Below, one piece after another: positions 2,498 through 53,313 of a DNA stretch of 64,000 nt. Both the position numbers and the translations under genes were made by a program. Source of the DNA: Bacilli bacterium (GTDB lineage: Bacteria > Bacillota_I > Bacilli_A > RFN20 > CAG-826). How positions within the stretch are numbered: the first letter of the stretch is position 1; the number at the start of each line of letters is the position of its first letter. Under the pieces are notes generated by a model, which was not told where the DNA came from, did no database searches, and saw only the letters and a program-made list of their open reading frames with translations. The stretch covers positions 17,659 to 81,658 of the forward strand of contig JBGUXN010000002.1 of the NCBI GenBank assembly GCA_045222195.1, given 5' to 3'.

Positions 2498-3490
2498 ATG
2501 GATTTGAAAGCCACCCCTAAATTTTGTGTGCACTGTGGATCTCCGATTAAACCAGGAGAAAAGTTTTGCATGAAATGTGGCGCTCAACTCGTCAAGAATC
2601 TTTACGATAAAACAGCGATTGAACCCACAAAGATTGAACCAACCGAAGTTAAACCAACAGAAATAGAACCCACCAAGATAGAGCCGACAAAAATCGAACC
2701 GACTGAAATCAAACCAACAGAGATTAAGCCGACTGAGATTGAGCCAACTCCTATAGAACCTACCCCAATTGAGCCAACACCAATTAAAGCTGGTGTCTTT
2801 AATAATAGGTTCTTTATGTTTTTCACTCACCCAAACATTTTGATATGGGGCGCTATTAATCTTGGTTCAACCTTATTCCATGTTATTTCAGTTAGCGCTG
2901 GTGGCTTTAACTGGTGGAATATCATTTCTTTGATTCTCGTGCTCGGTTCATTATTTGAAGTAGTATGGGGCATTATCACAGCGCCAGTTAACAAAACTAA
3001 TCCAGATGGTTCACCTAAGAGCAAAGGCAAAATCCTTGGCGATAAGATGAAATCTATATTTAAAGGCAATGGTCCAAAACCAAGCCCTAAGAACTTAATT
3101 GGTATTATCGGTAGTAGTATCGGAGTTCTTGCTTTAGTTATTTTTATTCTTGGATCATTATTCTCTGGTTTCAAAAACCACGTTGTTATAGACGGTTATA
3201 CCTTTAGGTATTCATATACTGGCTATGGTTATAACCCTGAAGTTGATTATGAACTAGTGACATTCTATCCTGGCTATAAAGCACGCAATACAATTTATGA
3301 AAAAGGAGTAATCACATTCCAAGCCTATGGCCCATATTGGCGAATTGGCGATGAATGCGGCCTTAAATTAAAAACATGTGAAGTTGGCACAATGAATAGC
3401 TGGGGAGAATGGGGTGTTACAACCAACTTCCATATTAATAGTTATAAGCATTTGCAAAGTGGTGGTTGCCACTTCTATAGGACTAAATAG
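2498..3490 (+). CDS. Zinc-ribbon membrane protein with an 11x EPTxI pentapeptide repeat linker
   Basis: N-terminal CVHCG-x10-FCMKCG. The repeat occupies aa 42-96, followed by 3 hydrophobic helices and a Cys/Trp/Tyr-rich C-terminal domain. Confidence 0.75.
   Translation: MDLKATPKFCVHCGSPIKPGEKFCMKCGAQLVKNLYDKTAIEPTKIEPTEVKPTEIEPTKIEPTKIEPTEIKPTEIKPTEIEPTPIEPTPIEPTPIKAGVFNNRFFMFFTHPNILIWGAINLGSTLFHVISVSAGGFNWWNIISLILVLGSLFEVVWGIITAPVNKTNPDGSPKSKGKILGDKMKSIFKGNGPKPSPKNLIGIIGSSIGVLALVIFILGSLFSGFKNHVVIDGYTFRYSYTGYGYNPEVDYELVTFYPGYKARNTIYEKGVITFQAYGPYWRIGDECGLKLKTCEVGTMNSWGEWGVTTNFHINSYKHLQSGGCHFYRTK
2621..2785 (+). repeat. 11 in-frame tandem 15-nt units encoding (E/K)PT(K/E/P)(I/V)
   Basis: Read directly: gaacccacaaagatt / gaaccaaccgaagtt / aaaccaacagaaata ... 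gagccaacaccaatt. Units differ mostly at synonymous positions. Confidence 0.9.
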
Positions 3491-3492
3491 TT

Positions 3493-3954
3493 ATGAATTT
3501 TAATAGTGGAACTCGTTTAGTGTTTATTATCTTCCTCGCTGTGATTGCGGTTCTTTTCATTTTATTAATTCTTGCCGCGGTTATTGGCAAAAAGAAGAGA
3601 AAAGTACCCGTTATCTTAAAGGTTTTTACCATTTTATTCACTGTATTATCTATCGCGGGTGGATTTGTGTTTCCATTCACTTATTACTGCAATATCCCAC
3701 TTAATCTTAAGTACGGTCGTTTTATGGGAAATGGCACCCCTGATTATCTTGTCGTTCATCACGACAGTGTGGAATTACACGAAAATGGTGAGTCAAGGGG
3801 TTTAAAAGGTACCTATACCATTAAAAACGATGTTTTAGAAATAACTTATAAAGATGGCACTACAGATAAGTTTATTGTTAAACATTTTGGCGCTGAACTC
3901 GTTGACCCAGTCACAAATATGAGAGCGTATTACTACACAGGAGATAAGAAATAA
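3493..3954 (+). CDS. Small membrane protein, unknown function
   Basis: Two N-terminal hydrophobic helices followed by a soluble domain of about 85 aa. Sits between zinc-ribbon paralogues, starting 3 nt after the upstream stop. Confidence 0.6.
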   Translation: MNFNSGTRLVFIIFLAVIAVLFILLILAAVIGKKKRKVPVILKVFTILFTVLSIAGGFVFPFTYYCNIPLNLKYGRFMGNGTPDYLVVHHDSVELHENGESRGLKGTYTIKNDVLEITYKDGTTDKFIVKHFGAELVDPVTNMRAYYYTGDKK

Positions 3955-3957
3955 TTT

Positions 3958-4863
3958 ATGAAGTTCTGTGCGTATTGTGGTGCCAAATTAAACGATAACG
4001 ATAAGTTCTGCCTCATGTGTGGCGAGAAATGTATCGACTTTTTTGATGAAAACGAAGAATATGCTTCTAATTTAGAAGAAGAAAACAAAAAACTCGAAGA
4101 AGAAAAACTCGAAGCGGAACGTAAGGCTAAAGAAGAAGCCGAACGTTTAGAACAAGAACGATTAGCGGAAGAAGCTCGTCTTAAAGCCGAAGAAGAAGCG
4201 AGACTTGAAGCTGAAAGATTAGAACAAGAACGCCTGGCAAGAGAAGAAGCTGAACGCTTAGAAAGAGAACGCATTGAGGAAGAAAAACGCCTTGAAGCTG
4301 AGCGTTTAGAAAAAGAAAGGCTCGAAGAAGAAGCCCGCTTGAAAGCGGAAGAAGAGGCGAGAAAAGAAGCGGAACGTTTAGAACAAGAAAGAATCGCTAA
4401 AGAAGAAGCCGAAAGACAAGCCGAACTTGCTAAAAAAGAACAGGAGAACAAAGATATTGTTGCTATGCAACAAGAAATCGAAAGATTAAAAGCAGAATTA
4501 GCTAATTCTAAGCAAGCTCAACCAATTGATGAAGATCTTGAAGAGCCTGAACCAGCTCCTCAAGTCATACCATATGTGGCTTTTAAAAAGGAGAATATAG
4601 TTCTTCCTCTTGTTTTATTTATCGTTTCATTTTTGATAGCTTTCGCATATATCTTGCTTAAAGACATGTTTGATTTAAGCATCATTATCTTTGGTGTGGG
4701 TGTAGCGGCAGTCCTTTTCACCTTTATTAGTTCTTTAATCATTAGAAAGAAATATGGGCCTGCCACTAAATGGCTCTGCTTAATTAATATCTTATGTTGT
4801 ATTGGCTTATTAGCGTTCTTACTCATTACACTTTTAAGTTCCTTCCCAGGAGGAGGCAAATAA
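3958..4863 (+). CDS. Zinc-ribbon membrane protein with a long E/R/K/A-rich helical linker
   Basis: N-terminal CAYCG-x10-FCLMCG. About 125 aa of [23 protein letters not shown]-type sequence, then 3 C-terminal TM helices. Confidence 0.75.
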
Positions 4864-4864
4864 T

Positions 4865-5746
4865 ATGAAATATTGTCCTAATTGTGGTTCGCAGTTACCA
4901 GATGAAGCAAGATTCTGCCCTAATTGTGGCACTAAGCAACCAAATATGGAGAACGCTCCCGCTCCGCAACCAGCGCCAGTAGTGGAACAAACTCCAGCAC
5001 CTCAACCAGCACCTGCTCCAGTTCCTCAAGAACCAGCGCAAATGACTCCAGGTCAAAGATACAATTATCTAAAACAAAATGATGAAAGATTCAAAGCTAC
5101 CGTCAAGGTTATTTCTGTCCTCAAATTTTTGGGATTGATTAGCTTGCTATTTATCATTCCGTGGTTAGTGTGTTATTTAACACCAGTTGGCACATTAACA
5201 GGCATTGATGCCAATGATTATGGCAATAACATCATGTCAATTTCTGGTAAATCATTCCCATATAATTTCTCTATGTATGAAGTCCAGTTTGTTTTAAGAT
5301 CATGGGCAAAAGTGGGCAAATATAAACTAACACCTAATAATTCTTTGGGTAACAATGTTATGCCAAGTGTTTTGTGGTACTTTGGCTTTTTGTTCATGGT
5401 CTTGCTTGCTTTAGTGTCGATACTTGGCATGCCTAGAGGCTTTGTTCTAAAAACATATGAAAAAGATCCTAAAGAGTTATATAAAGCCGTTAAAAACAAT
5501 ACAGTTTGGTTCTTTGGTCCAGCACTTACAATTATCGCCATGGTTAACGCCATCCTCACTTATTCAAATTGTAAAAATTTAGATTGGAGTGATATGAGCG
5601 GTTGTTTCTTGGGTATAATCGTAGAAAACAAAGCAGGATTAATCGCTGTTGTCGTAGTTAGTGTAATTTTTATACTTATCATGCTCGCGGGCTCAATTGT
5701 TCCAAGAATAATACTATTTAATAAGCTTAAAAAGCATTATCAATAA
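4865..5746 (+). CDS. Zinc-ribbon membrane protein with a Pro/Ala/Gln-rich linker
   Basis: N-terminal CPNCG-x10-FCPNCG, linker APAPQPAPVVEQTPAPQPAPAPVPQEP, and several TM helices. Confidence 0.75.
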   Translation: MKYCPNCGSQLPDEARFCPNCGTKQPNMENAPAPQPAPVVEQTPAPQPAPAPVPQEPAQMTPGQRYNYLKQNDERFKATVKVISVLKFLGLISLLFIIPWLVCYLTPVGTLTGIDANDYGNNIMSISGKSFPYNFSMYEVQFVLRSWAKVGKYKLTPNNSLGNNVMPSVLWYFGFLFMVLLALVSILGMPRGFVLKTYEKDPKELYKAVKNNTVWFFGPALTIIAMVNAILTYSNCKNLDWSDMSGCFLGIIVENKAGLIAVVVVSVIFILIMLAGSIVPRIILFNKLKKHYQ

Positions 5747-10050: not shown

Positions 10051-10596
10051 GTGAAAAAGTCTTTAAAACTTATCTTAAGTTCAATTGCTCTGATTTCTTT
10101 AATTGCATGTAGCGAAACTTACAAACCTAGCCACGAATTACCAAGCAGCATTGATGATACTAGTGTCCAAGAATCAATAAGTAGTTCTGAAGACACAACA
10201 TCCGAAGAAATCTCCTCAAGCAGTAGTGAGATATCTTCCGCTTCTAGCTCCTCTAGTGAAGAACAGTCATCATCGGCCCCATCTTCATCTAGCGAACAAC
10301 AATCATCCACTGAGGAACAATCTTCTAGTCAAGAACAGTCATCATCAGAAGAAGGAACTTACTATCATGTCACATTCATCAACTATGATGACAGCGTGCT
10401 CTACGAAGTTGATGTTCTAGAAGGACAAGAAGCAATCTATAACGGTGAAACCCCAATTAAACCAGAAGATGATGAATTCGTTTACGAGTTCAAAGGGTGG
10501 GATCAAGTTCTCACAAACATTCTCTCTGATTTAACCGTTAAAGCGGAATATTCATATACCGCGAAAGAAAACTGGGGTTCAATAATTTGGTTCTAA
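10051..10596 (+). CDS. Ser-rich lipoprotein with a C-terminal InlB B-repeat (Listeria-Bacteroides repeat) module
   Basis: GTG start 6 nt after AAGGAGG. Lipobox LIAC and a long SSSE/EQSS low-complexity tract. C-terminal YHVTFINYDDSVLYEVDVLEGQEAIYNGETPIKPEDDEFVYEFKGWD. Confidence 0.7.
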   Translation: MKKSLKLILSSIALISLIACSETYKPSHELPSSIDDTSVQESISSSEDTTSEEISSSSSEISSASSSSSEEQSSSAPSSSSEQQSSTEEQSSSQEQSSSEEGTYYHVTFINYDDSVLYEVDVLEGQEAIYNGETPIKPEDDEFVYEFKGWDQVLTNILSDLTVKAEYSYTAKENWGSIIWF

Positions 10597-10618: not shown

Positions 10619-10750
10619 ATGGAAGATAAGAAAAAATACGTAAAACCAGATGCTAATGTTGTCGATTTCGTCGATGAAGACATCATCACATTAAGTCTTG
10701 GCACACAAAACGGTGACTGGACAGAAGATGACAACGGCGAAAACATGTAG
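10619..10750 (+). CDS. Unannotated 43-aa acidic peptide (MEDKKKYVKPDANVVDFVDEDIITLSLGTQNGDWTEDDNGENM)
   Basis: ATG lies 9 nt after GAGGAGG (10603-10609); stop is TAG at 10748-10750. Fits exactly between two lipoprotein genes that use equally strong SDs. Confidence 0.6.
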   Translation: MEDKKKYVKPDANVVDFVDEDIITLSLGTQNGDWTEDDNGENM

Positions 10751-10762
10751 GAGGAAACGACC

Positions 10763-11983
10763 ATGAAGAAAAAATTACTTTTAGCAGTTCTTCCTGCTTT
10801 GCTAGTTCTTGCTTCTTGCTCTGCCCAACCAAATGCTAAAGCAGAACCAATCTTCCAAGAAGATACATTAGCTCACGAGGAAATCTTTGGTGAAGCAGAA
10901 GGTTTTGAATTAAGAGCACCAAAGCGTAACTTGGACAGCGACCCATACATGGCCGATAGAGCTCAACCAGCGATTGGCGTTCAATATCAAGAAAATGGTG
11001 ACAATATTTCGATTCGTTTTGTTGCTGCTATCGATATCGGTGAAGCAAATCTTGCTGATGTTAGTGCGGTTTGGCATAGAGTCTTATATTGGGATGATGG
11101 TTCCGTTGGTAAAGCTGATGCTCCAAAAGAATCTCTCAAGGCTTATACATCTTTGAATAACAAAGGAGACATTTATTCCATTAGTGACTTTAACGGCGCT
11201 ACAGGAACATATGACTATTTCGTTGTTTACACGTTGTTAAATGTTAAAAAGTCAGACTATCAATATTGCCGTTTGAATGCTTACTTGGAATTAAATGGTG
11301 GTGCTTCATATTCTAAAGTGTTATCAACAACCCTTGGCGGCGAATATAGATTTACATTTGACCACAATGATTCTGGTTACTTCTTGGCCGGAAAGATTAA
11401 TGGTGTTGAAAACGCTGTCGTTAAGCAACATTCACCAACATTGGGTAACGATAATCAAGCTTCGTTTATTGCAGACATCCAAAGCAACGACATGTTCTTT
11501 GTTGTTCACAAAACAGATGGTTATTTCGGAGTTAAAGGTGGCAGTGATGTTAGAAATTCATCTGACTTCGTTGCTAGCGAAGGAATGATTAAAGCAAACC
11601 AATCTGGAAACTTTGCTTTCTATTTTGGGAATGATAACCTAATTTATCCTTCTGGTAAATTAGTTACTGGTGGAAAAGGCTATTATGTTAGAGGCGAAAC
11701 TGCAAAAGGATGGGATGATTTAACTTTAGAATTACACCAAGACAACTGGGAAAACCTTATGTTGATTGAAAATGTTCAATTAACCGAAAATAAAGAGTTC
11801 AAAATTGGCACCAGCAACTGGAGCGCTGAATACAACTGGTACAATTTACTTGATTCTTCTAAGGACAATTTCGAAAAAGCAGACGGCGAAAGTTCTAATA
11901 TTAGAGTGAAATCTGGCAAGGGCGGCACTTATAACATTTACATTACAATTAACCAATGCCTTTCTATTGCGAAAGTTGCTTAA
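10763..11983 (+). CDS. Lipoprotein, unknown function (C-terminal Trp-rich module, possibly carbohydrate-binding)
   Basis: AGGAGG SD and lipobox LASC. C-terminal GYYVRGETAKGWDD...EFKIGTSNWSAEYNWYN; the CBM idea is a guess. Confidence 0.6.
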   Translation: MKKKLLLAVLPALLVLASCSAQPNAKAEPIFQEDTLAHEEIFGEAEGFELRAPKRNLDSDPYMADRAQPAIGVQYQENGDNISIRFVAAIDIGEANLADVSAVWHRVLYWDDGSVGKADAPKESLKAYTSLNNKGDIYSISDFNGATGTYDYFVVYTLLNVKKSDYQYCRLNAYLELNGGASYSKVLSTTLGGEYRFTFDHNDSGYFLAGKINGVENAVVKQHSPTLGNDNQASFIADIQSNDMFFVVHKTDGYFGVKGGSDVRNSSDFVASEGMIKANQSGNFAFYFGNDNLIYPSGKLVTGGKGYYVRGETAKGWDDLTLELHQDNWENLMLIENVQLTENKEFKIGTSNWSAEYNWYNLLDSSKDNFEKADGESSNIRVKSGKGGTYNIYITINQCLSIAKVA

Positions 11984-12007
11984 TTCATAATTTTCATTAT
12001 TTCTTAT

Positions 12008-12036
12008 AGAGCTTCTTTATGAAGCTCTTTTCTTTT
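12008..12036 (+). terminator. Rho-independent terminator of the lipoprotein operon
   Basis: AGAGCTTC (12008-12015) pairs with GAAGCTCT (12021-12028), followed by TTTTCTTTT. Confidence 0.8.
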
Positions 12037-12143: not shown

Positions 12144-12197
12144 AAACTAGACTGTCTTTACAAACATTCTAGTTTTTCTTTCATTAAAGATATAATA
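12144..12197 (+). repeat. Hairpin/T-tract/-10 cassette, copy A
   Basis: AAACTAGA (12144-12151), 16 nt loop, TCTAGTTT (12168-12175), then TTCTTT and TATAAT (12191-12196). Confidence 0.7.
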
Positions 12198-12215: not shown

Positions 12216-13604
12216 ATGTTGACCAAATTATTTCCATCTCTAGAAAATAACAAAGTTATAGTACTTCTCAATAAGTTTCTATATTCATATTATTACTTAG
12301 CTTTTATCGCGTTATTGACCGCTTTATCTTGTCTATTTGGTTTTGAGATGGTGACATATTACATCTATGTCCTATGTGGTGGTATCTTACCTTGCTTATT
12401 CTCTAAAGATATGACACCAATCTTTGCGCCTTTAGGTATGGCGTATTCTTCTGTTTCTTTAAGAACAAAAGACGTAGAGAACAATAAAACTCTATTTGGC
12501 GCTCAAATGTATCATTTATATATTCTTCTTGTTTTAATCGTGATCTTCGTTGGTGGAAGATTAATCTTTGATCTAATCACTAATAAAGAAAAAAGACATT
12601 ATTTTCCACGTTTAACAATTGGTTATATCATCTTTGGTGTAGCCCTGATCATCGGTGGTATTAATTCTCAATATTATACCGCTAGAGATTTCACCTTTGG
12701 TTTAGTGGAATGCCTAGCATTATCTGGTTGTTATTTCATTTTGATATACATCATTGATTGGAAAAACATCAAAAAAGAATATTATGCCTTCTTAATGCTA
12801 TTCTATGGCTTAGCCTTAGTTATTGAAGTGCTAGTTATCAGAATCACCAATGGTGGTGAAACAGTGAGAACTGGTTGGGGTATCAGCAATAATATCGCTG
12901 GCCAATTATGCATGTGCTTAGCAGGCCCAGTATATTTGGCCATAAAGAAAAAGCTGGCGCCTCTCTATTTAATTAGTGAAGGCACCATCCTTTTAGCCAT
13001 TGGCCTCACTAATTCCAGAACCGGCGCCTTAATGGGTACGATTATTTGTATCGGTTCATTAGTCATCTTCTTTATCAAAGCGGATAACAAGAAAAGACTT
13101 GCTGCTGGTATTATTGGTTGTCTAGCCATTACCTTATTCCTTGGCTTCACATTTATCTTTATGGATACTTTTGCCGTGGCATTTGAAGGCTTATTTAATA
13201 GAAGAAGCGGTACTTTCTCTTTAAACGGTAGACAAATCATTTGGGAACAAGCCTATAACAGTTTTATATCCAATCCGTCATTAGGAGTTGGTTGGTATCA
13301 ATGTAACTTTGGTAGAAGTGATTACTTTGCCTATAGCTTTGTGCCTGGAAGATATCACAATACCTTCTTCCAAATCATTGCGACGATGGGCTTGTTCGGC
13401 TTAATAGCGTACGCCTTCCATCGTTATCAAACTATTAAGATGGTTTTCAAAAAACCAACACTAGAAAAGATATTTATCTTTATTTCTATTCTAGGCCTCT
13501 TATTAACATCGTTATTTGATTGCCATTTCTTTAACTTAGGTCCAGGTCTAAATTACTGCATCGCTTTAGCGTTTTTAGAAGGGATTGTTATAGCGGCAAA
13601 CTAG
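12216..13604 (+). CDS. O-antigen ligase/polymerase-like (Wzy_C superfamily) polytopic membrane protein
   Basis: About 12 hydrophobic helices. Characteristic loop GLTNSRTGALMG, later GVGWYQ...RYHNTFFQIIATMG. No SD upstream. Confidence 0.65.
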   Translation: MLTKLFPSLENNKVIVLLNKFLYSYYYLAFIALLTALSCLFGFEMVTYYIYVLCGGILPCLFSKDMTPIFAPLGMAYSSVSLRTKDVENNKTLFGAQMYHLYILLVLIVIFVGGRLIFDLITNKEKRHYFPRLTIGYIIFGVALIIGGINSQYYTARDFTFGLVECLALSGCYFILIYIIDWKNIKKEYYAFLMLFYGLALVIEVLVIRITNGGETVRTGWGISNNIAGQLCMCLAGPVYLAIKKKLAPLYLISEGTILLAIGLTNSRTGALMGTIICIGSLVIFFIKADNKKRLAAGIIGCLAITLFLGFTFIFMDTFAVAFEGLFNRRSGTFSLNGRQIIWEQAYNSFISNPSLGVGWYQCNFGRSDYFAYSFVPGRYHNTFFQIIATMGLFGLIAYAFHRYQTIKMVFKKPTLEKIFIFISILGLLLTSLFDCHFFNLGPGLNYCIALAFLEGIVIAAN

Positions 13605-13641
13605 ATTGTGTTTAAACAGTCTAGTTTTTCTTTTATAATAT
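13598..13641 (+). repeat. Hairpin/T-tract/-10 cassette, copy B
   Basis: AAACTAGA (13598-13605, contains the TAG stop of the upstream gene), 14 nt loop, TCTAGTTT (13620-13627), then TTCTTTT and TATAAT (13634-13639). Confidence 0.7.
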
Positions 13642-14368
13642 GAATACACAAATGATTAACTTTAGAATCAAAATCGCTGATAAGGTCTTAGACATTAATG
13701 CTTTTAATGAAACTACGAAAAGATATTGTCGTCATTTTTTAAGTGAAGAAGAACCAGACTATGTCATTACCATGACCGAAGAAGATCTTAAAAACGAATC
13801 ATCTAATTCAGCGGATGGCAAAGTCTATGTTAATGAAGAAATAAGCGCTTTATATAGAAAGATCGCTAATATATTCGTTAATGATGGCATTATCGTTTTT
13901 CATGGTTCTTCATTTATGGTTGATGGTAGTGGTTTTCTTATCACCGCGAGAAGTGGTGTTGGTAAATCCACGCATTCAAGACTCTTAAATGAATTAATGG
14001 GTGAAGATTTTATCTATATCAATGACGATAAGCCTCTTATTTTAGTTAATGATTCGGTGACTATTTATTCTTCTCCTTGGAACGGTAAAGAAAGAAGAGG
14101 GAATAATGTGTCCGCTCCTTTAAAAGCTATTATGTTTTTATCTAGAAGCGAAACACCTTCTTTTAGAAAGATTGTTAGTAAAGAAGAAATCTATATTAAG
14201 ATGCTCTCTCAAATCTACTTACCAAAAGAAAAAGACTTAAGAGAAAAAGCCTTAAAGATCGCAGATAAATTATTAAGACAAGTTAATTTTTATGAAATAA
14301 ATGTTAATCAAGATATTGAATCCGCTAAAATGACATATGAAAGGATTATCAAAGATGAAATTAAATAA
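13640..14368 (+). CDS. HPr-kinase-C-terminal-domain-like P-loop protein (putative peptide/substrate kinase)
   Basis: FHGSSFMVDGSGFLITARSGVGKSTHSRLL...FIYINDDKPLI resembles HprK-related kinases from lasso/PqqD clusters. The start could instead be ATG 13652. Confidence 0.6.
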   Translation: MNTQMINFRIKIADKVLDINAFNETTKRYCRHFLSEEEPDYVITMTEEDLKNESSNSADGKVYVNEEISALYRKIANIFVNDGIIVFHGSSFMVDGSGFLITARSGVGKSTHSRLLNELMGEDFIYINDDKPLILVNDSVTIYSSPWNGKERRGNNVSAPLKAIMFLSRSETPSFRKIVSKEEIYIKMLSQIYLPKEKDLREKALKIADKLLRQVNFYEINVNQDIESAKMTYERIIKDEIK

Positions 14369-14624
14369 TGATTTTTTAATCCATGATACTGGTAATGGAG
14401 AAATGCTCATCCCAGTGGGGGAAGAAACTAAAAAGTTCCACGGTGTCATTAAACTTAATGCTACTGGCTCTGAAATAGTCCATCTTCTAGAAGAAGACAT
14501 TTCTTTAGATGCCTTACTTAATCACTTCTATGAAGCTTATCCAGATGATGATAAGGAAATGATTAAAACTACAGTTACTGAATTTATTAACAAGTTAAGA
14601 GAAGTCAATGCAATCACCTTATAA
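14355..14624 (+). CDS. PqqD-family protein (RiPP recognition element-like)
   Basis: About 90 aa: FLIHDTGNGEMLIPVG...VIKLNATGSEIVHLLEEDISLDALLNHFYEAYP...TVTEFINKLREVNAI. AAGGA SD precedes ATG 14355; the ORF track starts at 14337. Confidence 0.65.
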   Translation: MKLNNDFLIHDTGNGEMLIPVGEETKKFHGVIKLNATGSEIVHLLEEDISLDALLNHFYEAYPDDDKEMIKTTVTEFINKLREVNAITL

Positions 14625-15039
14625 GTTTGAAGAAGTATTAGAAAAAGACGGAGAACTCTTTTTTACTAATGTTGGGTATTCAATGTATCCACTAATTAAA
14701 GAAAGAGAGGATATTTTACATATCGTTACTTCTAATACATTTCAAAAAGGTGACATCATTCTTTTTAAATCAAAAGAAGAACACTATGTATTACATAGAA
14801 TCTTAAAGATTAAAAAAGATAAGATTATAACCGCAGGAGACTATAATTATTTTAAAGATCAACCAATCGTTAAAGAGCAGATATTAGGTAAACTAATAGA
14901 TATTAAAAAGAAAGACGGTAAGATCATCGATTTATCTAAAGATAAGAAAGGAAGAAAATTCTGGTACACTAATTTCTTTCCTATCAAAGCTTTCTTTCAA
15001 AAGGCTGGTAAAGTCTTACACTTAAGGAAAATCAAATGA
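14608..15039 (+). CDS. Soluble S24/S26-like serine peptidase (SipW/Sec11-like Ser-His pattern)
   Basis: GYSMYP (GxSMxP), GDIILF, VLHRIL, TAGDYN. No N-terminal TM helix. Overlaps both neighbouring genes. Confidence 0.6.
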   Translation: MQSPYKFEEVLEKDGELFFTNVGYSMYPLIKEREDILHIVTSNTFQKGDIILFKSKEEHYVLHRILKIKKDKIITAGDYNYFKDQPIVKEQILGKLIDIKKKDGKIIDLSKDKKGRKFWYTNFFPIKAFFQKAGKVLHLRKIK

Positions 15040-16676
15040 GAAACAAAGAAACATTAAGGTTCATTAATAGCAATATTAAGGGCTGTAAAGCTAAGATAGC
15101 CATTCTTTCTATTGCTCAAATCTTATTAGGTGCCTTAACCGTAGCGTTCTCATTTATGCTTAGATACGTAATAGGGGCGATTGAAGCAAAAGATCAAGAC
15201 GCTTTAATGCTATATACCATCATCATTGGTTCTATCGCTTTACTTCTTGTCGTTTTACAAATCTTCTACCGTATCTATTACGAAGTAAGCTTCGTGGATA
15301 TTGAAAATAAGCTCAAAAAGAACTTATTCCAAACCATCTTAAACAAAGATTACCAAGAAATTAAAAAGACCCATGATGAAGAATGGATTCATCGATTAAC
15401 TAGTGACACGAATGTGATTGCTTCATCAATATTGTCCATCTTACCTTCTTTATGTAGAATGGTGGTCCAATTAGTTTTAGCGTTAGCCGCGATTATCTAC
15501 TTATATCCAATCTTTGGTTTATCTTTATTGCCATTTATTGTTCTTATCATCTTAATTACCTATTTCATGCGTAAACGCCTTAAAAAGGCCCATCACCTAG
15601 TACAAGAAACAGATGGTAAGGTCAAAGTCTTCTTCTTTGAATCATTACAAGGTTTATCCATCGTCCATAGCTTTGTTAAAGAAGATGTCTTCTCTAAGAA
15701 AAATGAAGAAAACCTAGAAGCCTATAAGAAAGCCAGATTTAAAAGAAACGTTTTCGCGGTGATCTGCTCCATCGGTTTTGTCGTTGTTTATTACGCTTTC
15801 TATATCTTAGCGATTATCTTCTGTGGTAACGCGATTATTAAAGGGGCGATGACCATTGGTTTATTAACCGCGGTAGTGGCCCTTCTTACTCAATTAACAG
15901 GACCATTAGGTAATATTACTTCAATTATTCCTCGTTATTATTCTTTATTAGCCAGTGGTGAACGCTTAAGAATTGAAAAAGAAGAATCATTTAGTTACTT
16001 ATCTAAAGAAGAAATCGCGGAATTCTATGATAAAGAATTTAAATCTTTGAATATCAACAAAGTCTCTTTCTCCTATATTGATAAATATGGTAACAGGGTT
16101 GATGCTCTTAAGGATTTCTCCTTATTGGTGAATAAGAATGAAAGAATTTTAATTAAAGGCCATTCTGGTGGTGGTAAAACCACTCTCTTTAAGATTATTC
16201 TTTCCTTGCTTAAACCAGAAAGCGGTGAAGTCTTGCTTAATAACGAAGCATTAGACGCTAAATATGAAAGATTATTCGCCTATGTTCCTCAAGATAACTT
16301 ATTGATGGAAGGCACTATTAAAGAAGTCATCTCTCTATACGATAAAGATGTCGATGATGATAAACTCCAAAAAGCCATTCGCTTAAGTAGTTCAGATGCT
16401 TTCATTAATGAATTAGCGTTAAAAGAAAATACTTACCTTAACGAAAAAGGTAGCGGTCTATCTCTTGGTGAAATGGAAAGAATCGCGATTGCTAGAGCCA
16501 TCTATAGCGATGCGCCTATCATGTTACTTGATGAATGTAGTGCTTCTTTAGATTTAGAAACAGAAAAGAAAGTCATTTCCAATATCCTTTCTTTAGAAAA
16601 TAAAACGATCTTATTAATCTCCCATCATAAGTATGATGAATCATTATTTGATAAAGTTATTGATCTAGGTGAATAA
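15036..16676 (+). CDS. ABC exporter, fused TMD-NBD
   Basis: Six N-terminal helices, Walker A GHSGGGKTT, degenerate signature LSLGEMER, Walker B MLLDECSASLD. ATGA overlap with the upstream gene. Confidence 0.85.
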   Translation: MRNKETLRFINSNIKGCKAKIAILSIAQILLGALTVAFSFMLRYVIGAIEAKDQDALMLYTIIIGSIALLLVVLQIFYRIYYEVSFVDIENKLKKNLFQTILNKDYQEIKKTHDEEWIHRLTSDTNVIASSILSILPSLCRMVVQLVLALAAIIYLYPIFGLSLLPFIVLIILITYFMRKRLKKAHHLVQETDGKVKVFFFESLQGLSIVHSFVKEDVFSKKNEENLEAYKKARFKRNVFAVICSIGFVVVYYAFYILAIIFCGNAIIKGAMTIGLLTAVVALLTQLTGPLGNITSIIPRYYSLLASGERLRIEKEESFSYLSKEEIAEFYDKEFKSLNINKVSFSYIDKYGNRVDALKDFSLLVNKNERILIKGHSGGGKTTLFKIILSLLKPESGEVLLNNEALDAKYERLFAYVPQDNLLMEGTIKEVISLYDKDVDDDKLQKAIRLSSSDAFINELALKENTYLNEKGSGLSLGEMERIAIARAIYSDAPIMLLDECSASLDLETEKKVISNILSLENKTILLISHHKYDESLFDKVIDLGE

Positions 16677-17803
16677 TGGATAAGCTCACTTTTATTAATT
16701 ATCTTAATAAATACACTAAGTTAATGGCCCTTTATTTAAACAATAAAGAAGACCCTAATTTTGCTATTAGTAATGAGGAATTAACTTTTTTCATTAAGCT
16801 TTCTAAACATCATTCTTTGATGGCGTTCCTTTATAAAGCCATCAGTGAAGTAAGAGTAAAAGCGGATGAAGATAAAATCCACAAATTAGAAGAATACTAT
16901 TTAGCGAACCTTCGTAAATCCGTTCTCTTTGATAAAGAAAGAAAGGACATCTACGCTTTCTTTAATGAAAATGAGATTGAGTTTCTCCCTCTTAAGGGTA
17001 TTATCTTAAAAGATTATTATTTAGATCCGTACACTAGAGAATTCGCGGATAACGATATCTTGTTTGCTAATAAAGATAAGCTCATCAAAAACTTCTTTGT
17101 TAAAAGAGGCTACGAAGTAGAATCATTTAGGAAGAGTAACCATGATGTCTATTTAAAGAAACCATTCTTTAATTTTGAAATCCATCGAGATTTATTTGAT
17201 GAAACCGAGGACAATAGGAAAAACATTAAATACTTTAAGGATTACCTAGATAAAGCCCCAGTTAAAGAAAATCACGAACATTATCTTTCTAACGAAGATT
17301 TCTATATTTATTTCTTGGCCCACACTTATAAACATTACCATGTTTCTGGATGCGGCCTTAGAACACTTATTGATATCTATTTATATTTAAAGAAAGAACA
17401 ATTAGATTTTAATTACATTAATAAAGAATTAGAGAAATTAGATTTAGTGGAATTCTCTAAAGAGATTATCGATTTATCGTTTGCCTTATTCGATGAAAAA
17501 GAATTGAACGAAGAGCAAAATAACATGCTTTTATTTATCGCTAGTAGTGGTACTTATGGCACCCTTGAACACAGTGTTAAAAAAGGCGTTAAAGAAAAAG
17601 GCAAGTTTGGCTACGCCATGAAAAGAGTGTTCCCACCTTATTCTTTCTACAAAAATACCTACAAATGGGCTTATAAAGTCCCAATCTTAATTCCAATTGC
17701 CTGGTTATGTCGATTCTTTAGAATCCTCTTCAAGAATCCGAAAAAGGCGACGAAAGAATTAAAGATGATTAGCGAAGTTAAAGAAGAAGAGACCACTGAT
17801 TAG
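16676..17803 (+). CDS. Uncharacterised nucleotidyltransferase family protein (NTP_transf_5-like)
   Basis: FLPLKGIILKDYYLDPYTREFADNDILF...FEIHRDLF pattern. TAATG overlap with the ABC gene. Confidence 0.6.
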   Translation: MDKLTFINYLNKYTKLMALYLNNKEDPNFAISNEELTFFIKLSKHHSLMAFLYKAISEVRVKADEDKIHKLEEYYLANLRKSVLFDKERKDIYAFFNENEIEFLPLKGIILKDYYLDPYTREFADNDILFANKDKLIKNFFVKRGYEVESFRKSNHDVYLKKPFFNFEIHRDLFDETEDNRKNIKYFKDYLDKAPVKENHEHYLSNEDFYIYFLAHTYKHYHVSGCGLRTLIDIYLYLKKEQLDFNYINKELEKLDLVEFSKEIIDLSFALFDEKELNEEQNNMLLFIASSGTYGTLEHSVKKGVKEKGKFGYAMKRVFPPYSFYKNTYKWAYKVPILIPIAWLCRFFRILFKNPKKATKELKMISEVKEEETTD

Positions 17804-17816
17804 TGGCCTCTTTTTT
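17789..17816. terminator. Terminator between convergent genes
   Basis: GAGACCACT pairs with AGTGGCCTC (one mismatch), followed by TTTTTT. Overlaps the TAG stop at 17801-17803. Confidence 0.65.
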
Positions 17817-17817
17817 A

Positions 17818-19923
17818 TTAATCAAGGTTGAATACAAGCGGCGATGATTCAACTCCGTTATATTCGAGAATATAAGTGACTTTATTACTTTCAGATTTAC
17901 TCTTTAATGTAATAACGATTTCATCTTTTTGATATCTTTGAATAGTCCAACCATCTTGATAGTCACTGCTTAAATATTCCCAGCGTGGAAAATCGCTATT
18001 ATAGGTATTTTCCGCTAAACCGTATCTATTAACGTAGACTTTAACATCGCCTACACTAATGGCTTTCGCGTGGCATAATTGACACTCACCATCTTTATCG
18101 CAGTGATCAAGGATATAAATAGAAACATATGTATCAATCTTTTTCCCTTCAGCATTATATTGGGTGGCATAACCACTGTATCCGTTATAGTGATTAGAGA
18201 AGTCACCCTCTTTTACTTCGTAAACCGATTCATCTTTTTCGTGACATTTTGTGCATTCATCGTATTGGAAATATAAATAGCCTGCTTGAGCCCAAGATGG
18301 ATTGCTGATTAAGTTAAGATGGCGATCGTGAGAATAGGTATCATTTACATATGTGGTTCTACCACACTTACTACAGATACTTGGAGTGCTTGTTAAGCAT
18401 GTGTTGATAACAACTGGTTCTCCATAAGAGGAATTATGAGCAGTATACACATACCAAGTATTTAATTCTTTTAATAAGGTATATCTACTCTTAATATCGG
18501 CGATGGTGTTAGTGTCACTAGATAAACCAACGCCCGCTAAATAGACTTTCTTTTTATCGCTACTGGAAGAGTCTTCATTATCAAGAATGGCTTGTTGTTC
18601 CGCGGTAATGTTAAATTTAACATTCTTAAAAGCAATGAATGTATATTGTGTTTCTTCGACACATGAAGATTCACTGATATATTGTTTATCTCCACTTTGA
18701 TAGACGATAATCATAATTTCGTCTTTTTCATAATAAGCGACATAATTAGTGCCGCCTTTAGAATCGCTAAGTGGGAATGTTTGTCTGAATAATGGTGGAT
18801 AGCTACTATCTGTACCAATGTAATTAGAACCAATGTATTCATTAGTGTCCTTACAGTATTGAATTGAAAGCAATTTATGACCATCTTTATTAATTAATTC
18901 TTCTGGGCAATAACTGCTTTGATAGTCCGGATGATAATCACAAACACCACAGTATTTATGTTTGTTATTTATATCATGTGGCTTAATTTCTTTATCGAGG
19001 TATTTTTGACAGTCATAGCACATCTTACGGTGGCCTTTACCTTCTAAATTATCCATCTTAAAGAACTTATGTTGATGTTCACAAGTGACTTCACCACTTG
19101 GAATAGTTAATTTAACTTTATTCAAGTCAGTGGCTTTAACTTCGACATTAGCCTCAAGAATAGTGCCACTTCCTAAAATATCACCATTTAATGAGCCCCC
19201 TAATGTCATAGTGGTGCCATCATGTTTAAAGTGGGCTTTATCTAAGACAGTTCCTGAGATATTAATGCCACCTTCTGGCTCTAAGATATATTCCCCGTTA
19301 ACGGGTTTGCCGTTCACTAGGGCTTCTTTAATAAGATCTTTTAAATTATGAAGAATAAAGCAGTTATCTTGGACATCTTCATATTCATCATAGTTAGTGT
19401 ATTTACTAGCGATGAGCTTATCTTTGCTGTCAAATTCTAAGACTTTGTATTGATCATATTCTTGATCATAGATGTAATATTTATTCTTCGTAGCTTTTTC
19501 TGAACCAGAAGAAGTTTCTTGAGAAACAGTTCTTTTTGCTTCGTCAAAAGTGTACTTTGGATAAGCTTCTTTAAGTTCAGCAATAGATTTATTACCACTG
19601 TTTTTGATGATGTCATCTAAAGGATATGTTTCTTTAGTGGTGGTTAAACTTTCTTGCGGTAAAGAAACAGCGTTTAAACCATCAACTTTACTCTTTTCAA
19701 CTACTGATATTTCAGTCACGCCTTTGGTGAGCATATCACCGAATTTGGTTTCACCTTTTAAAGCTAAAGTGGTGCTTAAAGAATAACTAGTGTAAGAAGT
19801 ATATTCTTCCGCTTTTTGTTCGGCTTCTGAACTATTGTAGTTTCTTTGTGGTCCTTGACAGCCACAGCTAGATAAGGCGAAAAGCGCCACTAGTGGAATA
19901 ATGGATAATACTATTTTTCTCAT
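17818..19923 (-). CDS. Large lipoprotein with several Cys/His clusters, unknown function
   Basis: AAGGAGAAGG SD and lipobox LSSC. Clusters CEHQHK..HRKMCYDCQ..HKYCGVCDYH, ICSKCG..HDRH, ECTKCH, HCDKDGECQLCH. Confidence 0.65.
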   Translation of the reverse strand: MRKIVLSIIPLVALFALSSCGCQGPQRNYNSSEAEQKAEEYTSYTSYSLSTTLALKGETKFGDMLTKGVTEISVVEKSKVDGLNAVSLPQESLTTTKETYPLDDIIKNSGNKSIAELKEAYPKYTFDEAKRTVSQETSSGSEKATKNKYYIYDQEYDQYKVLEFDSKDKLIASKYTNYDEYEDVQDNCFILHNLKDLIKEALVNGKPVNGEYILEPEGGINISGTVLDKAHFKHDGTTMTLGGSLNGDILGSGTILEANVEVKATDLNKVKLTIPSGEVTCEHQHKFFKMDNLEGKGHRKMCYDCQKYLDKEIKPHDINNKHKYCGVCDYHPDYQSSYCPEELINKDGHKLLSIQYCKDTNEYIGSNYIGTDSSYPPLFRQTFPLSDSKGGTNYVAYYEKDEIMIIVYQSGDKQYISESSCVEETQYTFIAFKNVKFNITAEQQAILDNEDSSSSDKKKVYLAGVGLSSDTNTIADIKSRYTLLKELNTWYVYTAHNSSYGEPVVINTCLTSTPSICSKCGRTTYVNDTYSHDRHLNLISNPSWAQAGYLYFQYDECTKCHEKDESVYEVKEGDFSNHYNGYSGYATQYNAEGKKIDTYVSIYILDHCDKDGECQLCHAKAISVGDVKVYVNRYGLAENTYNSDFPRWEYLSSDYQDGWTIQRYQKDEIVITLKSKSESNKVTYILEYNGVESSPLVFNLD

Positions 19924-39076: not shown

Positions 39077-39676
39077 TTATAATTTATGAACTTTTTCAAT
39101 CTTCAATTCAAATTTCTCGTATCCTTCTCTAGTGATTGAGACAATATGTTTATCAAAGATAAATGTTTGGCATTGATAGTCTTTGCCTTTAAATGTTTTG
39201 ACGCCATTGAATGGGAGGCTTGGTACTTCTTTAACATGACTAATCGAACTACCCATGCATTTAATTAAGCTTTCTTTTGCGCACCAAAGATAATAGAAAT
39301 CAGCGTGTTCTTTAATCATTTTAGCTTCGGCTTCATTGAATATCTTGGTTAATAAAGACATGTCTTTTGGAATGTTCTCTTCTATATCGATGCCAATCTC
39401 ACTAGAGGATACCGCCATCATGACATATTTTCCCGAATGGGAAACATTAAAATATGGTCCGTTTTCATAATACGGTTTACCCATTTCATTAAAGAGAAGT
39501 GGTTCTTTAGATAATTGGTTTATTAAATAAGAAGATAATAATGATCTAATCTGATCTTTTTCGTTTTTAAAACGAAGCGCTTTTTCCACTTGCTTTTCAT
39601 TAACAAGCTTTAATAGCTTTTGTTTATGGGTGTTACCAAAATCTAAATCTGCGATTAACAATCTAACGATTTCCAT
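39077..39676 (-). CDS. 4'-phosphopantetheinyl transferase (Sfp type)
   Basis: GKPYY..GPYFNVSHSGKYVMMAVS..EIGIDIE and WCAKESLIK motifs. Confidence 0.75.
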   Translation of the reverse strand: MEIVRLLIADLDFGNTHKQKLLKLVNEKQVEKALRFKNEKDQIRSLLSSYLINQLSKEPLLFNEMGKPYYENGPYFNVSHSGKYVMMAVSSSEIGIDIEENIPKDMSLLTKIFNEAEAKMIKEHADFYYLWCAKESLIKCMGSSISHVKEVPSLPFNGVKTFKGKDYQCQTFIFDKHIVSITREGYEKFELKIEKVHKL

Positions 39677-39733
39677 GTCTCTATTTTACCATTTTTGTGA
39701 ACAAATAAATAAAACGTAGTAGAATGATAATTG

Positions 39734-51913: not shown

Positions 51914-51928
51914 TGTTTTGCTATACTA

Positions 51929-53311: not shown

Positions 53312-53313
53312 TA

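Follow-up and report, generated by a model that had tools for sequence, protein, structure and literature searches.

A five-gene operon in the 64,000-nt window analysed here (positions 17,659 to 81,658 of contig JBGUXN010000002.1, assembly GCA_045222195.1, from a Bacilli bacterium of the CAG-826 lineage) belongs to a widespread, unnamed gut and rumen bacterial system that appears to process and export very short acidic peptides, and that is regarded as a candidate new RiPP-like class. The cassette encodes a ScmC/HPr-kinase-like P-loop protein, a PqqD recognition element, a soluble Sec11/SipW-type (S26B) signal peptidase, an ABC exporter, and an NTP_transf_5 enzyme, without any of the known peptide-cyclising enzymes. 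A 43-aa ORF located 2.9 kb upstream of the operon belongs to a large unannotated family of peptides with a conserved leader and a hypervariable core. The chemistry of the kinase-like and nucleotidyltransferase-like steps, and the biological role of the system, are inferred. The coordinates of all features are listed in Table 1.

Table 1. Features of the peptide locus and the maturation and export operon (positions are those of the window).
Position	Strand	Feature	Characteristics
10051..10596	+	Conserved 181-aa lipoprotein	Lipobox, Ser/Glu-rich linker and C-terminal beta domain ending in WGSIIWF; precedes the peptide gene
10619..10750	+	Precursor peptide, 43 aa	Leader MEDKKKYVKPDANVVDFVDEDIITLS; predicted core LGTQNGDWTEDDNGENM
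10763..11983	+	Hypervariable 406-aa surface lipoprotein	Coupled to the peptide gene by a 12-nt gap; conserved EDTLAHEEIFG motif after the lipobox; all-beta multi-domain body
12008..12028	+	Terminator-like hairpin	Ends the peptide-lipoprotein unit; right-hand breakpoint of the swapped allelic block
12216..13604	+	Wzy_C (O-antigen ligase/polymerase-like) membrane protein	Clade-specific neighbour; bracketed by two copies of a roughly 40-nt hairpin element at 12144-12184 and 13598-13636
13640..14368	+	ScmC/HPr-kinase/PEPCK-fold P-loop protein	Likely true start at 13652 (238 aa); Walker A SGVGKST and an INDDKP motif
14337..14624	+	Discrete PqqD-type RiPP recognition element	Likely start at 14355
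14608..15039	+	Soluble S26B (Sec11/SipW-type, Ser/His) signal-peptidase-like leader peptidase	No N-terminal membrane anchor
15036..16676	+	Half-size TMD-NBD ABC exporter	ATGA junction at 15036; no C39 peptidase domain
16676..17803	+	NTP_transf_5 nucleotidyltransferase-fold enzyme	TAATG junction at 16676; intact P-L-K-G ... D-N-D motif
17787..17812		Terminator-like hairpin at the operon end	Lies between the convergent NTP_transf_5 gene and the 701-aa lipoprotein gene

The first-pass annotation, which was made from the sequence alone, described five overlapping or abutting genes in this region, and that observation was confirmed, all five ORFs being present with the coordinates and junctions given. 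Family assignments were examined using Pfam and NCBIfam profile searches. The PqqD protein matched PF05402 at 38.6 bits (cut-off 23.4) and showed weak similarity to the lasso B1 models NF033530 and NF033536. The NTP_transf_5 enzyme matched PF14907 at 137 bits, the exporter matched ABC_membrane (119.7 bits) and ABC_tran (88.3 bits), and the neighbouring Wzy_C protein was confirmed at 59.4 bits. For the exporter, the nearest NCBIfam models were CydD, MsbA, and bacteriocin exporters, all below cut-off. The peptidase passed TIGR02228 (archaeal/ER-type signal peptidase I) at 54.9 bits against a cut-off of 51.85 and was only weakly similar to Peptidase_S24. The first protein scored below the curated cut-offs of every sequence model, including Hpr_kinase_C and ScmC, but it carries the precomputed PF27840 ScmC label. 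Its AlphaFold model (pLDDT 96.3) matched ATP-PEPCK (E 5e-8) and HPrK/P (E 2e-6) folds in a Foldseek search, and residues H88, S105, G106, G108, K109, H112, N128, D130, K131, and P132 were invariant among its relatives.

Several details of the earlier description were corrected. The first protein, given as 242 aa, most likely starts 12 nt further downstream, as in nearly all relatives, and the PqqD gene most likely begins at the second of its two possible starts. The peptidase is of the S26B type (Ser/His, SipW/Sec11-like) and not LexA-like S24. The LSLGE signature of the exporter, which had been called degenerate, is a clade-specific variant, the family consensus being LSEGQ in 30 of 37 sequences. 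There is indeed no precursor inside the operon, but the upstream 43-aa ORF, which the first-pass annotation had suggested as a candidate peptide, is preceded by a strong Shine-Dalgarno sequence (GAGGAGG) 8 nt upstream of its ATG.

The cassette was compared with 82 related loci (labelled with L numbers below). The set recurs as a unit, and the same gene order (ScmC-like, PqqD, S26, ABC, NTP_transf_5) was found in the closest relatives L001, L003, L083, and L087, while L002 and L085 keep the order with extra genes inserted. Among 79 species-level loci, from Ruminococcus, Lachnospiraceae, Erysipelotrichaceae, and others, all five genes occurred together in 20, PqqD was adjacent to the ScmC-like gene in 61, the S26 peptidase was present in 52, and NTP_transf_5 was present in 32, sometimes placed before the ScmC gene. 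Natural fusions of the ScmC-like protein to PqqD and to the S24/S26 peptidase tie three of the proteins physically, and one fusion to radical SAM was also found. The G-x-S-M-x-P, H-R, and G-D motifs of the peptidase were conserved in at least 95% of 52 homologues, and the NTP_transf_5 motif in at least 95% of 32 homologues. The catalytic residues of both the peptidase and the NTP_transf_5 enzyme were thus conserved, as were the P-loop and DD motifs of the ScmC-like protein, whose fold was confirmed.

No SGGxDS PP-loop ORF indicative of a lasso cyclase was found within 10 kb in any of the 82 loci, and Pfam searches of 40 ORFs of the window returned no RiPP core enzyme (lasso C/B2, radical SAM, YcaO, or Lan enzymes). 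A radical SAM/SPASM enzyme was found beside the peptide in only 8 related loci, where cores often carry Cys.

The leader of the peptide family is conserved (M-x-K-Y-E-x-P-E-M-E-V-V-E-F-E-x-E-D-V-I-T-T-S), and the core is hypervariable, short (median 14 aa), and acidic. About 52 copies were found beside the same cassette in 36 of 83 sequences (the 82 related loci plus the window), some in tandem arrays of 5-6 copies, and a profile search returned at least 1148 protein clusters, none of them named. No NCBIfam or Pfam model was found for the family. Ser occupied position -1 in 88% of members, Thr position -3 in 80%, and Thr position -2 in 76%, and 98% of cores were net negative, whereas 26% of cores had no Ser, Thr, or Tyr and C-terminal Ser was rare. 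Loci L093 and L094 provide a self-contained minimal cluster in which ScmC, two peptide genes, PqqD, S26, ABC, and NTP_transf_5 lie among pyr genes, the peptide genes being inside the cassette.

Peptide genes were almost always coupled to genes for secreted or lipid-anchored proteins. Homologues of the 181-aa lipoprotein sit directly upstream of the peptide gene in L001, L002, L083, L085, L087, and L088, and downstream of it in L003. Within the species of the window, the peptide and the lipoprotein gene after it form a swapped hypervariable block, with 49% and 34% identity, respectively, between strains whose flanking genes are 95-100% identical (98% for the 181-aa lipoprotein between the window and strain L083). 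Core and lipoprotein divergence did not, however, correlate across 10 pairs (rho 0.02, p 0.44). Relatives of the hypervariable lipoprotein carry CBM26/CBM20 domains and the name 'starch-binding protein', and its AlphaFold model (pLDDT 85.6) had no PDB match at E<=1e-3. The link to surface lipoproteins and the strain-level hypervariability had not been seen in the first-pass annotation.

The explanation favoured here, with moderate confidence, is that the operon is the processing and export half of a two-part locus. The identity of the substrate, the 43-aa peptide with a conserved RRE-type leader and a hypervariable acidic core of about 17 aa, is regarded as shown by the sequence analysis, although 47 of the 83 sequences had no peptide within 10 kb, so that in many genomes the substrate link is by inference. 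The remaining steps are inferred. The discrete PqqD protein would bind the leader and present it to the soluble Ser/His peptidase, which would cut after the near-invariant T-x-S in a manner that fits the -3/-1 rule of signal peptidases, although the preference for Ser and Thr over Ala at -1 and -3 is not explained by the peptidase rule alone. The ABC exporter, having no peptidase domain of its own, would secrete the short acidic product. The ScmC/HPrK-fold protein and the NTP_transf_5 enzyme would act on the RRE-bound peptide as ATP/NTP-dependent tailoring enzymes, the precedent being PsmK, which phosphorylates, and PsmN, which decorates the phosphate, of lasso precursors (PMC6993621; see also PMC7533575). 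The only characterised activity of the related kinases is C-terminal Ser phosphorylation, which, given the composition of the cores, cannot apply generally; the target here cannot be a conserved core hydroxyl and is more likely the T-T-S junction, a carboxylate, or a terminus. The product probably works together with the surface lipoprotein encoded next to the peptide gene because the two are exchanged together between strains. Against the favoured explanation as a whole, a promoter-like site and a hairpin separate the peptide unit from the operon. In this view, no lasso cyclase, B2 protease, or radical SAM enzyme is needed in this version of the system.

The earlier interpretation was supported in part. 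The proposal of an RRE-centred peptide kit that lacks the known core enzymes, recurs as a unit, and co-occurs with a small ORF was supported, as was the parallel with lasso-peptide accessory genes. Phosphorylation or nucleotidylation of the core, which had also been proposed, is unproven and cannot be a universal hydroxyl modification, and the alternative that the kit decorates a surface glycoconjugate through Wzy_C is not a family feature.

The strongest rival, although unlikely, is that the product is an unmodified pheromone or bacteriocin-like peptide for which the only chemistry is leader removal and export. In this reading, the RRE, the P-loop protein, and the S26 peptidase would form an ATP-dependent leader-peptidase complex, functionally analogous to the ATP-dependent lasso B protein, and NTP_transf_5 would be an optional accessory. 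This is favoured by the fusions described above, by the constancy of the ScmC-PqqD-S26 trio relative to NTP_transf_5, by the absence of a conserved modifiable residue in the cores, and by hypervariable cores and tandem arrays of variants, as with pherotype peptides. However, no sensor kinase or Rgg/PlcR-type receptor is conserved next to the cassette, the kinase fold has all catalytic residues of phosphotransferases, and the one studied homologue pair modifies the peptide (PMC6993621).

It is doubtful that the kit decorates a surface glycoconjugate or lipoprotein, with Wzy_C, the ABC protein, the kinase, and the nucleotidyltransferase building or attaching a phospho-linked group and the peptide serving as the acceptor or as an anchor for the neighbouring surface proteins. 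A Wzy_C gene lies near the cassette in three different arrangements within the clade of the window: at the same position in the same species (L083, L084), and downstream of the cassette in L085 (67% identity) and L088 (22% identity). The ABC protein also resembles PglK and MsbA flippases, and the coupling to secreted or lipid-anchored proteins would fit. Nevertheless, Wzy_C was absent from all 80 species-level GTDB loci and from the minimal cluster, no other glycan-synthesis genes are conserved next to the cassette, and the RRE and leader-peptide architecture point to a peptide substrate.

Least likely is that the operon is an accessory module of a lasso-peptide or radical-SAM (ranthipeptide/sactipeptide-like) pathway whose core enzyme lies elsewhere in this genome, since, although PqqD, HprK-family kinase, NTP transferase, and ABC exporter are known accessories of Firmicute and rumen lasso clusters (PMC6993621; PMC7533575), the leaders resemble Lachnospiraceae lasso leaders (PMC7533575), Thr is frequent at -2, and radical SAM enzymes occur in 8 related loci and in one ScmC fusion, no Asn-synthetase PP-loop motif was found within 10 kb in the 82 loci, no RiPP core enzyme was found among 40 window ORFs, Asp/Glu at core positions 7-9 was not enriched over shuffled cores (0.60 against 0.56, and 0.53 against 0.57 in the other register), the window core has no Cys, a dedicated S26 peptidase occupies the B2 role, and the minimal cluster L093 lacks both enzyme types.

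Among known systems, the Firmicute lasso-peptide clusters with kinase and NTP transferase (paeninodin pade, pseudomycoidin psm) share the discrete PqqD/B1 recognition element, the HprK-family kinase, the PF14907-type NTP transferase, the half-size ABC exporter, and a short leader with a Lys-rich start, an aromatic residue, an acidic beta-strand segment, and Thr near the cleavage site. The present system differs in having no lasso cyclase and no transglutaminase-like B2 protease, whose role is taken by the Sec11/SipW-type peptidase, in its short cores without enrichment of a ring-acceptor Asp/Glu, and in lacking the C-terminal Ser that PsmK and PadeK phosphorylate. The SynChlorMet (SCM) cassette (TIGR04249 ScmC) likewise pairs an HPrK-like ScmC-type protein with a PqqD homologue in a presumed peptide-modification cassette. 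The SCM cassette is defined by two radical SAM/SPASM enzymes and is not known to have an identified precursor, whereas here there is no radical SAM enzyme, a precursor family has been found, an S26 peptidase, ABC exporter, and NTP_transf_5 are added, and the score to TIGR04249 is 21 bits against a cut-off of 125.

Double-glycine leader peptides exported by C39-ABC transporters (ComC/ComAB, class II bacteriocins) are also short ribosomal peptides with a conserved leader and a strain-variable core, in which the leader is removed, the peptide is exported by a dedicated ABC transporter, and variant copies occur in tandem. Here, the leader carries T-x-S in place of G-G, the peptidase is a separate S26B enzyme rather than a fused C39 domain, an RRE, a kinase-fold protein, and a nucleotidyltransferase-fold protein are present, and the cores are strongly anionic. 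The SipW/Sec11-type dedicated signal peptidases share the Ser/His S26B catalytic motifs and a predicted cut following small residues at -3 and -1, but the present protein has no N-terminal membrane anchor and its inferred substrate is an acidic RRE-type leader rather than a Sec signal peptide. Finally, with respect to ranthipeptide/sactipeptide-type radical SAM RiPP clusters, the same leader family and the same cassette accompany a SPASM-type radical SAM enzyme in the 8 sister loci, and several of their cores carry Cys, whereas the window and most loci have no radical SAM enzyme and their cores are Cys-free.

Open reading frames were listed for the window and compared with Pfam and NCBIfam profiles, and the five genes between 13640 and 17803 were found exactly as the first-pass annotation had described them, so that the observation is confirmed. 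Successive genes are joined by a 14- or 32-nt overlap, depending on the start taken for PqqD, a 17-nt overlap, ATGA and TAATG. Small corrections apply to that annotation: relatives start protein 1 at the second Met (13652, 238 aa) and PqqD at the internal ATG at 14355, and the LSLGE signature of the exporter is a clade variant of a family-wide LSEGQ. The coordinates of the features in the window and in related loci are collected in the table.

Coordinates of the cassette, the precursor peptide gene and other features in the window and in related loci (L numbers)
Sequence	Coordinates	Strand	Length	Feature
window	2498-5746	+	330, 301 and 293 aa	three of four consecutive genes, encoding membrane proteins that each start with a zinc-ribbon domain
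window	3493-3954		153 aa	ORF separating the first of these three from the other two; outside the set of scanned ORFs
window	10619-10750		43 aa	precursor peptide gene
window	10648-12008			allelic replacement block relative to L083
window	12144-12184		roughly 40 nt	hairpin, terminator-like element, first copy
window	12216-13604			Wzy_C protein
window	13598-13636		roughly 40 nt	hairpin, terminator-like element, second copy
window	13640-14368		242 aa	protein 1, ScmC/HPrK-like P-loop protein
window	14337-14624		95 aa	PqqD-like recognition element (RRE)
window	14608-15039		143 aa	S26B signal-peptidase-like peptidase
window	15036-16676		546 aa	ABC exporter
window	16676-17803		375 aa	NTP_transf_5 protein
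window	17818-19923	-	701 aa	lipoprotein convergent with the operon
window	39077-41104			4'-phosphopantetheinyl transferase gene next to a GH77 4-alpha-glucanotransferase gene
window	50948-56391		460 aa (second protein), 1025 aa (third)	ORF6N-domain protein, protein without a Pfam match and SNF2-family helicase in a row
L083	4983-6357			counterpart of the allelic replacement block
L029	7189-9309			large secreted protein upstream of peptide gene
L039	3395-9205			large secreted protein upstream of peptide gene
L053	437-3577			large secreted protein upstream of peptide gene
L010	884-2791			large secreted protein upstream of peptide gene
L085	9430-10725			AAA_14/DUF4143 ATPase gene between the S26 and ABC genes
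L088	6693-8111			similar gene just upstream of the lipoprotein-peptide unit
L091	10001-10114			orphan family peptide

Profile searches supported the assignments. The PqqD protein scored 38.6 bits against PF05402 (cut-off 23.4), although its match to the lasso-specific models NF033530 and NF033536 was only weak (18.6-19.6 bits against cut-offs of 70-80). The NTP_transf_5 protein scored 137.1 bits against PF14907 (gathering score 31.2), and the exporter matched both ABC_membrane and ABC_tran. The small peptidase passed the archaeal/ER-type signal peptidase I model TIGR02228 at 54.9 bits against 51.85, which places it in S26B, and was only marginal to Peptidase_S24; the membrane anchor typical of the family is absent from its sequence. 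Its Ser (G-x-S-M-x-P) and His (H-R) motifs are conserved in at least 95% of 52 homologues, and the same holds for the G...D-x-D site of NTP_transf_5 in 32 homologues. Protein 1 fell below every curated cut-off (TIGR00679, 20.9 bits against 240; Hpr_kinase_C, 19.3 bits against 33.3, E 8.8e-4; ScmC TIGR04249, 21.2 bits against 125), but it is labeled PF27840 ScmC in the protein collection. An AlphaFold model of it built on 45 homologues was very confident (pLDDT 96.3) and matched ATP-dependent PEP carboxykinases (E 5e-8) and HPr kinase/phosphorylases (E 2e-6), whereas a PDB sequence search with the ScmC-like profile gave only marginal PEPCK and HPrK hits. The Walker A motif, His88, His112 and the N-D-D-K-P motif are invariant. 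Only the fold and the P-loop/DD motifs are shared with HPr kinase/phosphorylase. From their motifs, all three enzymes look catalytically competent.

A full scan of 1.84 billion representatives returned 5161 relatives of protein 1 at E<=1e-3, some of which are fused to PqqD, to the S24/S26 peptidase or to a radical SAM domain. Eighty species-level loci were retrieved, mostly from rumen and gut Ruminococcus, Lachnospiraceae, Oscillospiraceae and Erysipelotrichaceae, with a few from Synergistaceae and Muribaculaceae/Bacteroidales and one from an uncultured actinobacterium; the nearest is an uncultured 'Bacilli bacterium' at 63% identity. Within 6 kb of the ScmC-like gene and on the same strand, PqqD was found in 61 of 79 loci, the S26-like peptidase in 52, the ABC exporter in 35, NTP_transf_5 in 32 and all five genes in 20, with many of the contigs being truncated. 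The order ScmC-PqqD-S26-ABC-NTP5 is the commonest, and PqqD-NTP5-ScmC-S26-ABC also occurs. In one relative (L085) an AAA_14/DUF4143 ATPase gene is inserted between the S26 and ABC genes.

Relatives carry small ORFs with a shared N-terminus, and a profile built from these ORFs identified about 52 copies in 36 of 83 sequences (82 related loci plus the window), including arrays of five and six copies. The copy in the window is a 43-aa ORF that had been flagged in the first-pass annotation only as a candidate, and it is preceded by a GAGGAGG ribosome-binding site. In loci that have the cassette but no family peptide, no alternative small ORF family was found. A profile search of the 5.8-billion protein collection returned 1148 clusters of 31-65 aa, none with a name or a Pfam domain and with cluster-member names empty. 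NCBIfam contains no model for the family; the NCBIfam scan of six peptides and a PADLOC scan of the operon gave no hits beyond generic ABC similarity, and PADLOC made no defence-system assignment. Literature searches on the leader motif, on NTP_transf_5 with PqqD, on SynChlorMet/ScmC and on HPr kinase with radical SAM and PqqD, together with RRE genome-mining papers, yielded no description of the cassette or of the peptide family, as far as the searchable literature shows.

Statistics were computed on 165 non-redundant family members. The leader consensus is M-x-K-Y-E-x-P-E-M-E-V-V-E-F-E-x-E-D-V-I-T-T-S, with Ser at -1 in 88%, Thr at -2 in 76% and Thr at -3 in 80%. The remainder has a median length of 14 aa and is rich in Gly, Asp, Glu and Pro; 98% are net negative, all but one contain Asp or Glu, no core position is conserved, and 26% of cores have no Ser, Thr or Tyr. 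In L093/L094, a human-gut contig, two such peptide genes lie inside the operon between the ScmC and PqqD genes, among pyrimidine-biosynthesis genes and with no other candidate enzyme present, which is the cleanest evidence that the peptide plus the five genes form a complete system. Precursors can also be scattered in a genome, since in L091 an orphan family peptide (MKEKYTAPEMEIVEFDAEDVITTSNPNGTPTTPDVDI) lies more than 10 kb from any cassette gene, next to a 258-aa secreted protein and cobW genes. One 65-aa metagenomic database protein (P0385) consists of two family peptides in tandem in a single ORF, as leader-core-leader-core.

The peptide gene of the window lies between two lipoprotein genes and is 12 nt from the second. 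The unit consisting of the 181-aa lipoprotein (Lipo181), the peptide and a lipoprotein of roughly 400 aa recurs in that order in most close relatives (loci L001, L002, L083, L085, L087 and L088); L003 places the Lipo181 homologue after the other two, and L090 carries the peptide-lipoprotein pair. The family of the larger lipoprotein has a conserved EDTLAHEEIFG motif after the lipobox, and some members carry CBM26/CBM20 starch-binding modules. Its predicted structure is all-beta and multi-domain, and a Foldseek search of the model against the PDB gave nothing at E<=1e-3. L083 belongs to the same species as the window, and its flanking proteins are 95-100% identical, whereas the peptide is 49% identical and the lipoprotein 34%. 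At the DNA level the two sequences align at 94.5% up to 10648 and again from 12008, with nothing aligning in between, so that the exchanged block runs from leader codon 11 or so to the terminator after the lipoprotein. A third strain (L089) has the identical peptide but an 86%-identical lipoprotein.

In Clostridia loci the peptide gene instead follows, by 3-50 nt, genes for large secreted proteins (the four in the table and about 20 others), which have variable N-terminal parts and share a conserved, unannotated C-terminal domain of about 300 aa. The link to surface proteins is thus general. Homology between this domain and the Bacilli lipoprotein family was not detected (hhalign probability 0.06%), and residue-level co-variation of core and lipoprotein could not be shown, as a Mantel test on 10 pairs (rho 0.02, p 0.44) was uninformative because most pairs are saturated at 25-35% identity.

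The Wzy_C gene upstream of the operon (59 bits) is conserved at this position within the species and lies downstream of the cassette in L085 (67% identical) and in the relative L088 (22% identical). The two copies of the hairpin element (AAACTAGAyTGT..TTTA.AAACA.TCTAGTTTTTCTTT) bracket it in the window, and the second copy overlaps a TTTAAA-17-TATAAT promoter-like site that ends 1 nt before the ATG at 13640. The convergent 701-aa lipoprotein on the other side of the operon has many Cys-x-x-Cys and His-rich motifs and no Pfam match; it is 95% identical in strain L083, but relatives L001 and L003 have different proteins at this position. The row containing the zinc-ribbon membrane proteins is conserved in L001 and L083. 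No carrier-protein synthase to accompany the 4'-phosphopantetheinyl transferase was seen among the scanned ORFs of the window, and the row ending in the SNF2-family helicase may be a mobile or defence-related island.

The interpretation in the first-pass annotation was partly supported. The analysis establishes the gene content, conservation, catalytic motifs and folds (that of protein 1 from a predicted model), the precursor family with its genomic linkage, and the absence of known core enzymes nearby. The mechanism, by contrast, is inferred: PqqD would bind the acidic, beta-strand-like leader, the soluble S26B peptidase would cut after T-x-S by the -3/-1 rule of signal peptidases to give a peptide starting at Leu27 (LGTQNGDWTEDDNGENM, or with a mass shift), the ABC protein, which has no C39 domain, would export the core, and the P-loop protein and NTP_transf_5 would tailor the peptide. 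The published precedent for tailoring is phosphorylation of a C-terminal Ser by PsmK, followed by hexose addition to the phosphate by PsmN (PMC6993621). For a post-translational modification beyond leader removal, which membership in the RiPPs in general requires, the support consists only of the enzyme folds and this literature precedent. That exact chemistry cannot be general here, given the core statistics, and the near-invariant hydroxyls at -1 and -3, the universal carboxylates and the termini are the candidate sites. A serious alternative is that the RRE, P-loop protein and peptidase form an ATP-dependent leader peptidase and that the peptide is otherwise unmodified. A more far-reaching possibility, considered unlikely on present evidence but not excluded, is a new RiPP class defined by the PEPCK/HPrK-fold P-loop protein and the NTP_transf_5 enzyme, which would act on carboxylates or termini of short anionic cores, for example through acyl-phosphate or acyl-nucleotide activation leading to cyclisation, or through a phospho-glycosyl or nucleotidyl cap. 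The products would then be strain-specific partners of the hypervariable surface proteins encoded next to them, for instance a peptide ligand or cap for glycan-binding lipoproteins in gut and rumen Firmicutes. A core role for Wzy_C was rejected, as an HMM built from three Wzy_C neighbours found none in the 80 species-level loci.

The cassette and its peptide family are abundant in gut and rumen metagenomes, with thousands of 50%-identity clusters of the kinase-like protein and more than a thousand peptide clusters, none of which carries a functional name or a curated model. If confirmed, the system would define a leader-peptide pathway in which a soluble Sec11/SipW-type peptidase replaces the lasso B2 protease and the C39 domain, a biological context for the long-orphan ScmC/HprK-like and NTP_transf_5 proteins seen beside PqqD in many clusters, and a link between small secreted peptides and strain-variable surface glycan-binding proteins in important fibre- and starch-degrading bacteria. 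It also supplies a concrete, short substrate and a six-gene construct for direct biochemical testing.

Membership in known systems was examined in turn. The leader resembles Firmicute lasso leaders, and the PqqD, kinase and NTP transferase have lasso precedents (PMC6993621, PMC7533575). However, no ORF of at least 300 aa in a lasso context carries the SGGxDS PP-loop of the macrolactam synthetase, either in the window or within 10 kb in 82 loci, and Pfam scans of 40 window ORFs revealed no Asn_synthase, transglutaminase, radical SAM, YcaO or lanthionine enzymes. A lasso core has Gly, Ala, Ser or Cys at position 1 and an Asp/Glu acceptor at positions 7-9; Asp/Glu at 7-9 was no more frequent than in shuffled cores, occurring in 60% and 53% of 162 cores in the two registers, against 56% and 57% in shuffled cores, although the window core alone would be compatible in one register (S1...D8). 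Even so, within the DNA examined, this is not a lasso system. A radical SAM reading was likewise rejected for the window, which has no ORF with CxxxCxxC/GGEP motifs and a core without Cys, but a SPASM-type radical SAM enzyme sits beside the peptide in 8 sister loci, often with Cys-containing cores, and the same leader and cassette can therefore serve a thioether-type branch. The SynChlorMet cassette requires two radical SAM/SPASM partners in addition to an equivalog-level ScmC, and neither condition is satisfied in the window. The system does not satisfy the criteria that define lasso, SCM, HPrK or C39-ABC membership. It is regarded as a form of the already known RRE-dependent ribosomal peptide pathway, and it could prove to be a new class if the kinase-fold and NTP-transferase-fold enzymes install a new modification. 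In its overall scheme of leader recognition, cleavage and ABC export, it works like a split-B lasso or double-glycine peptide pathway.
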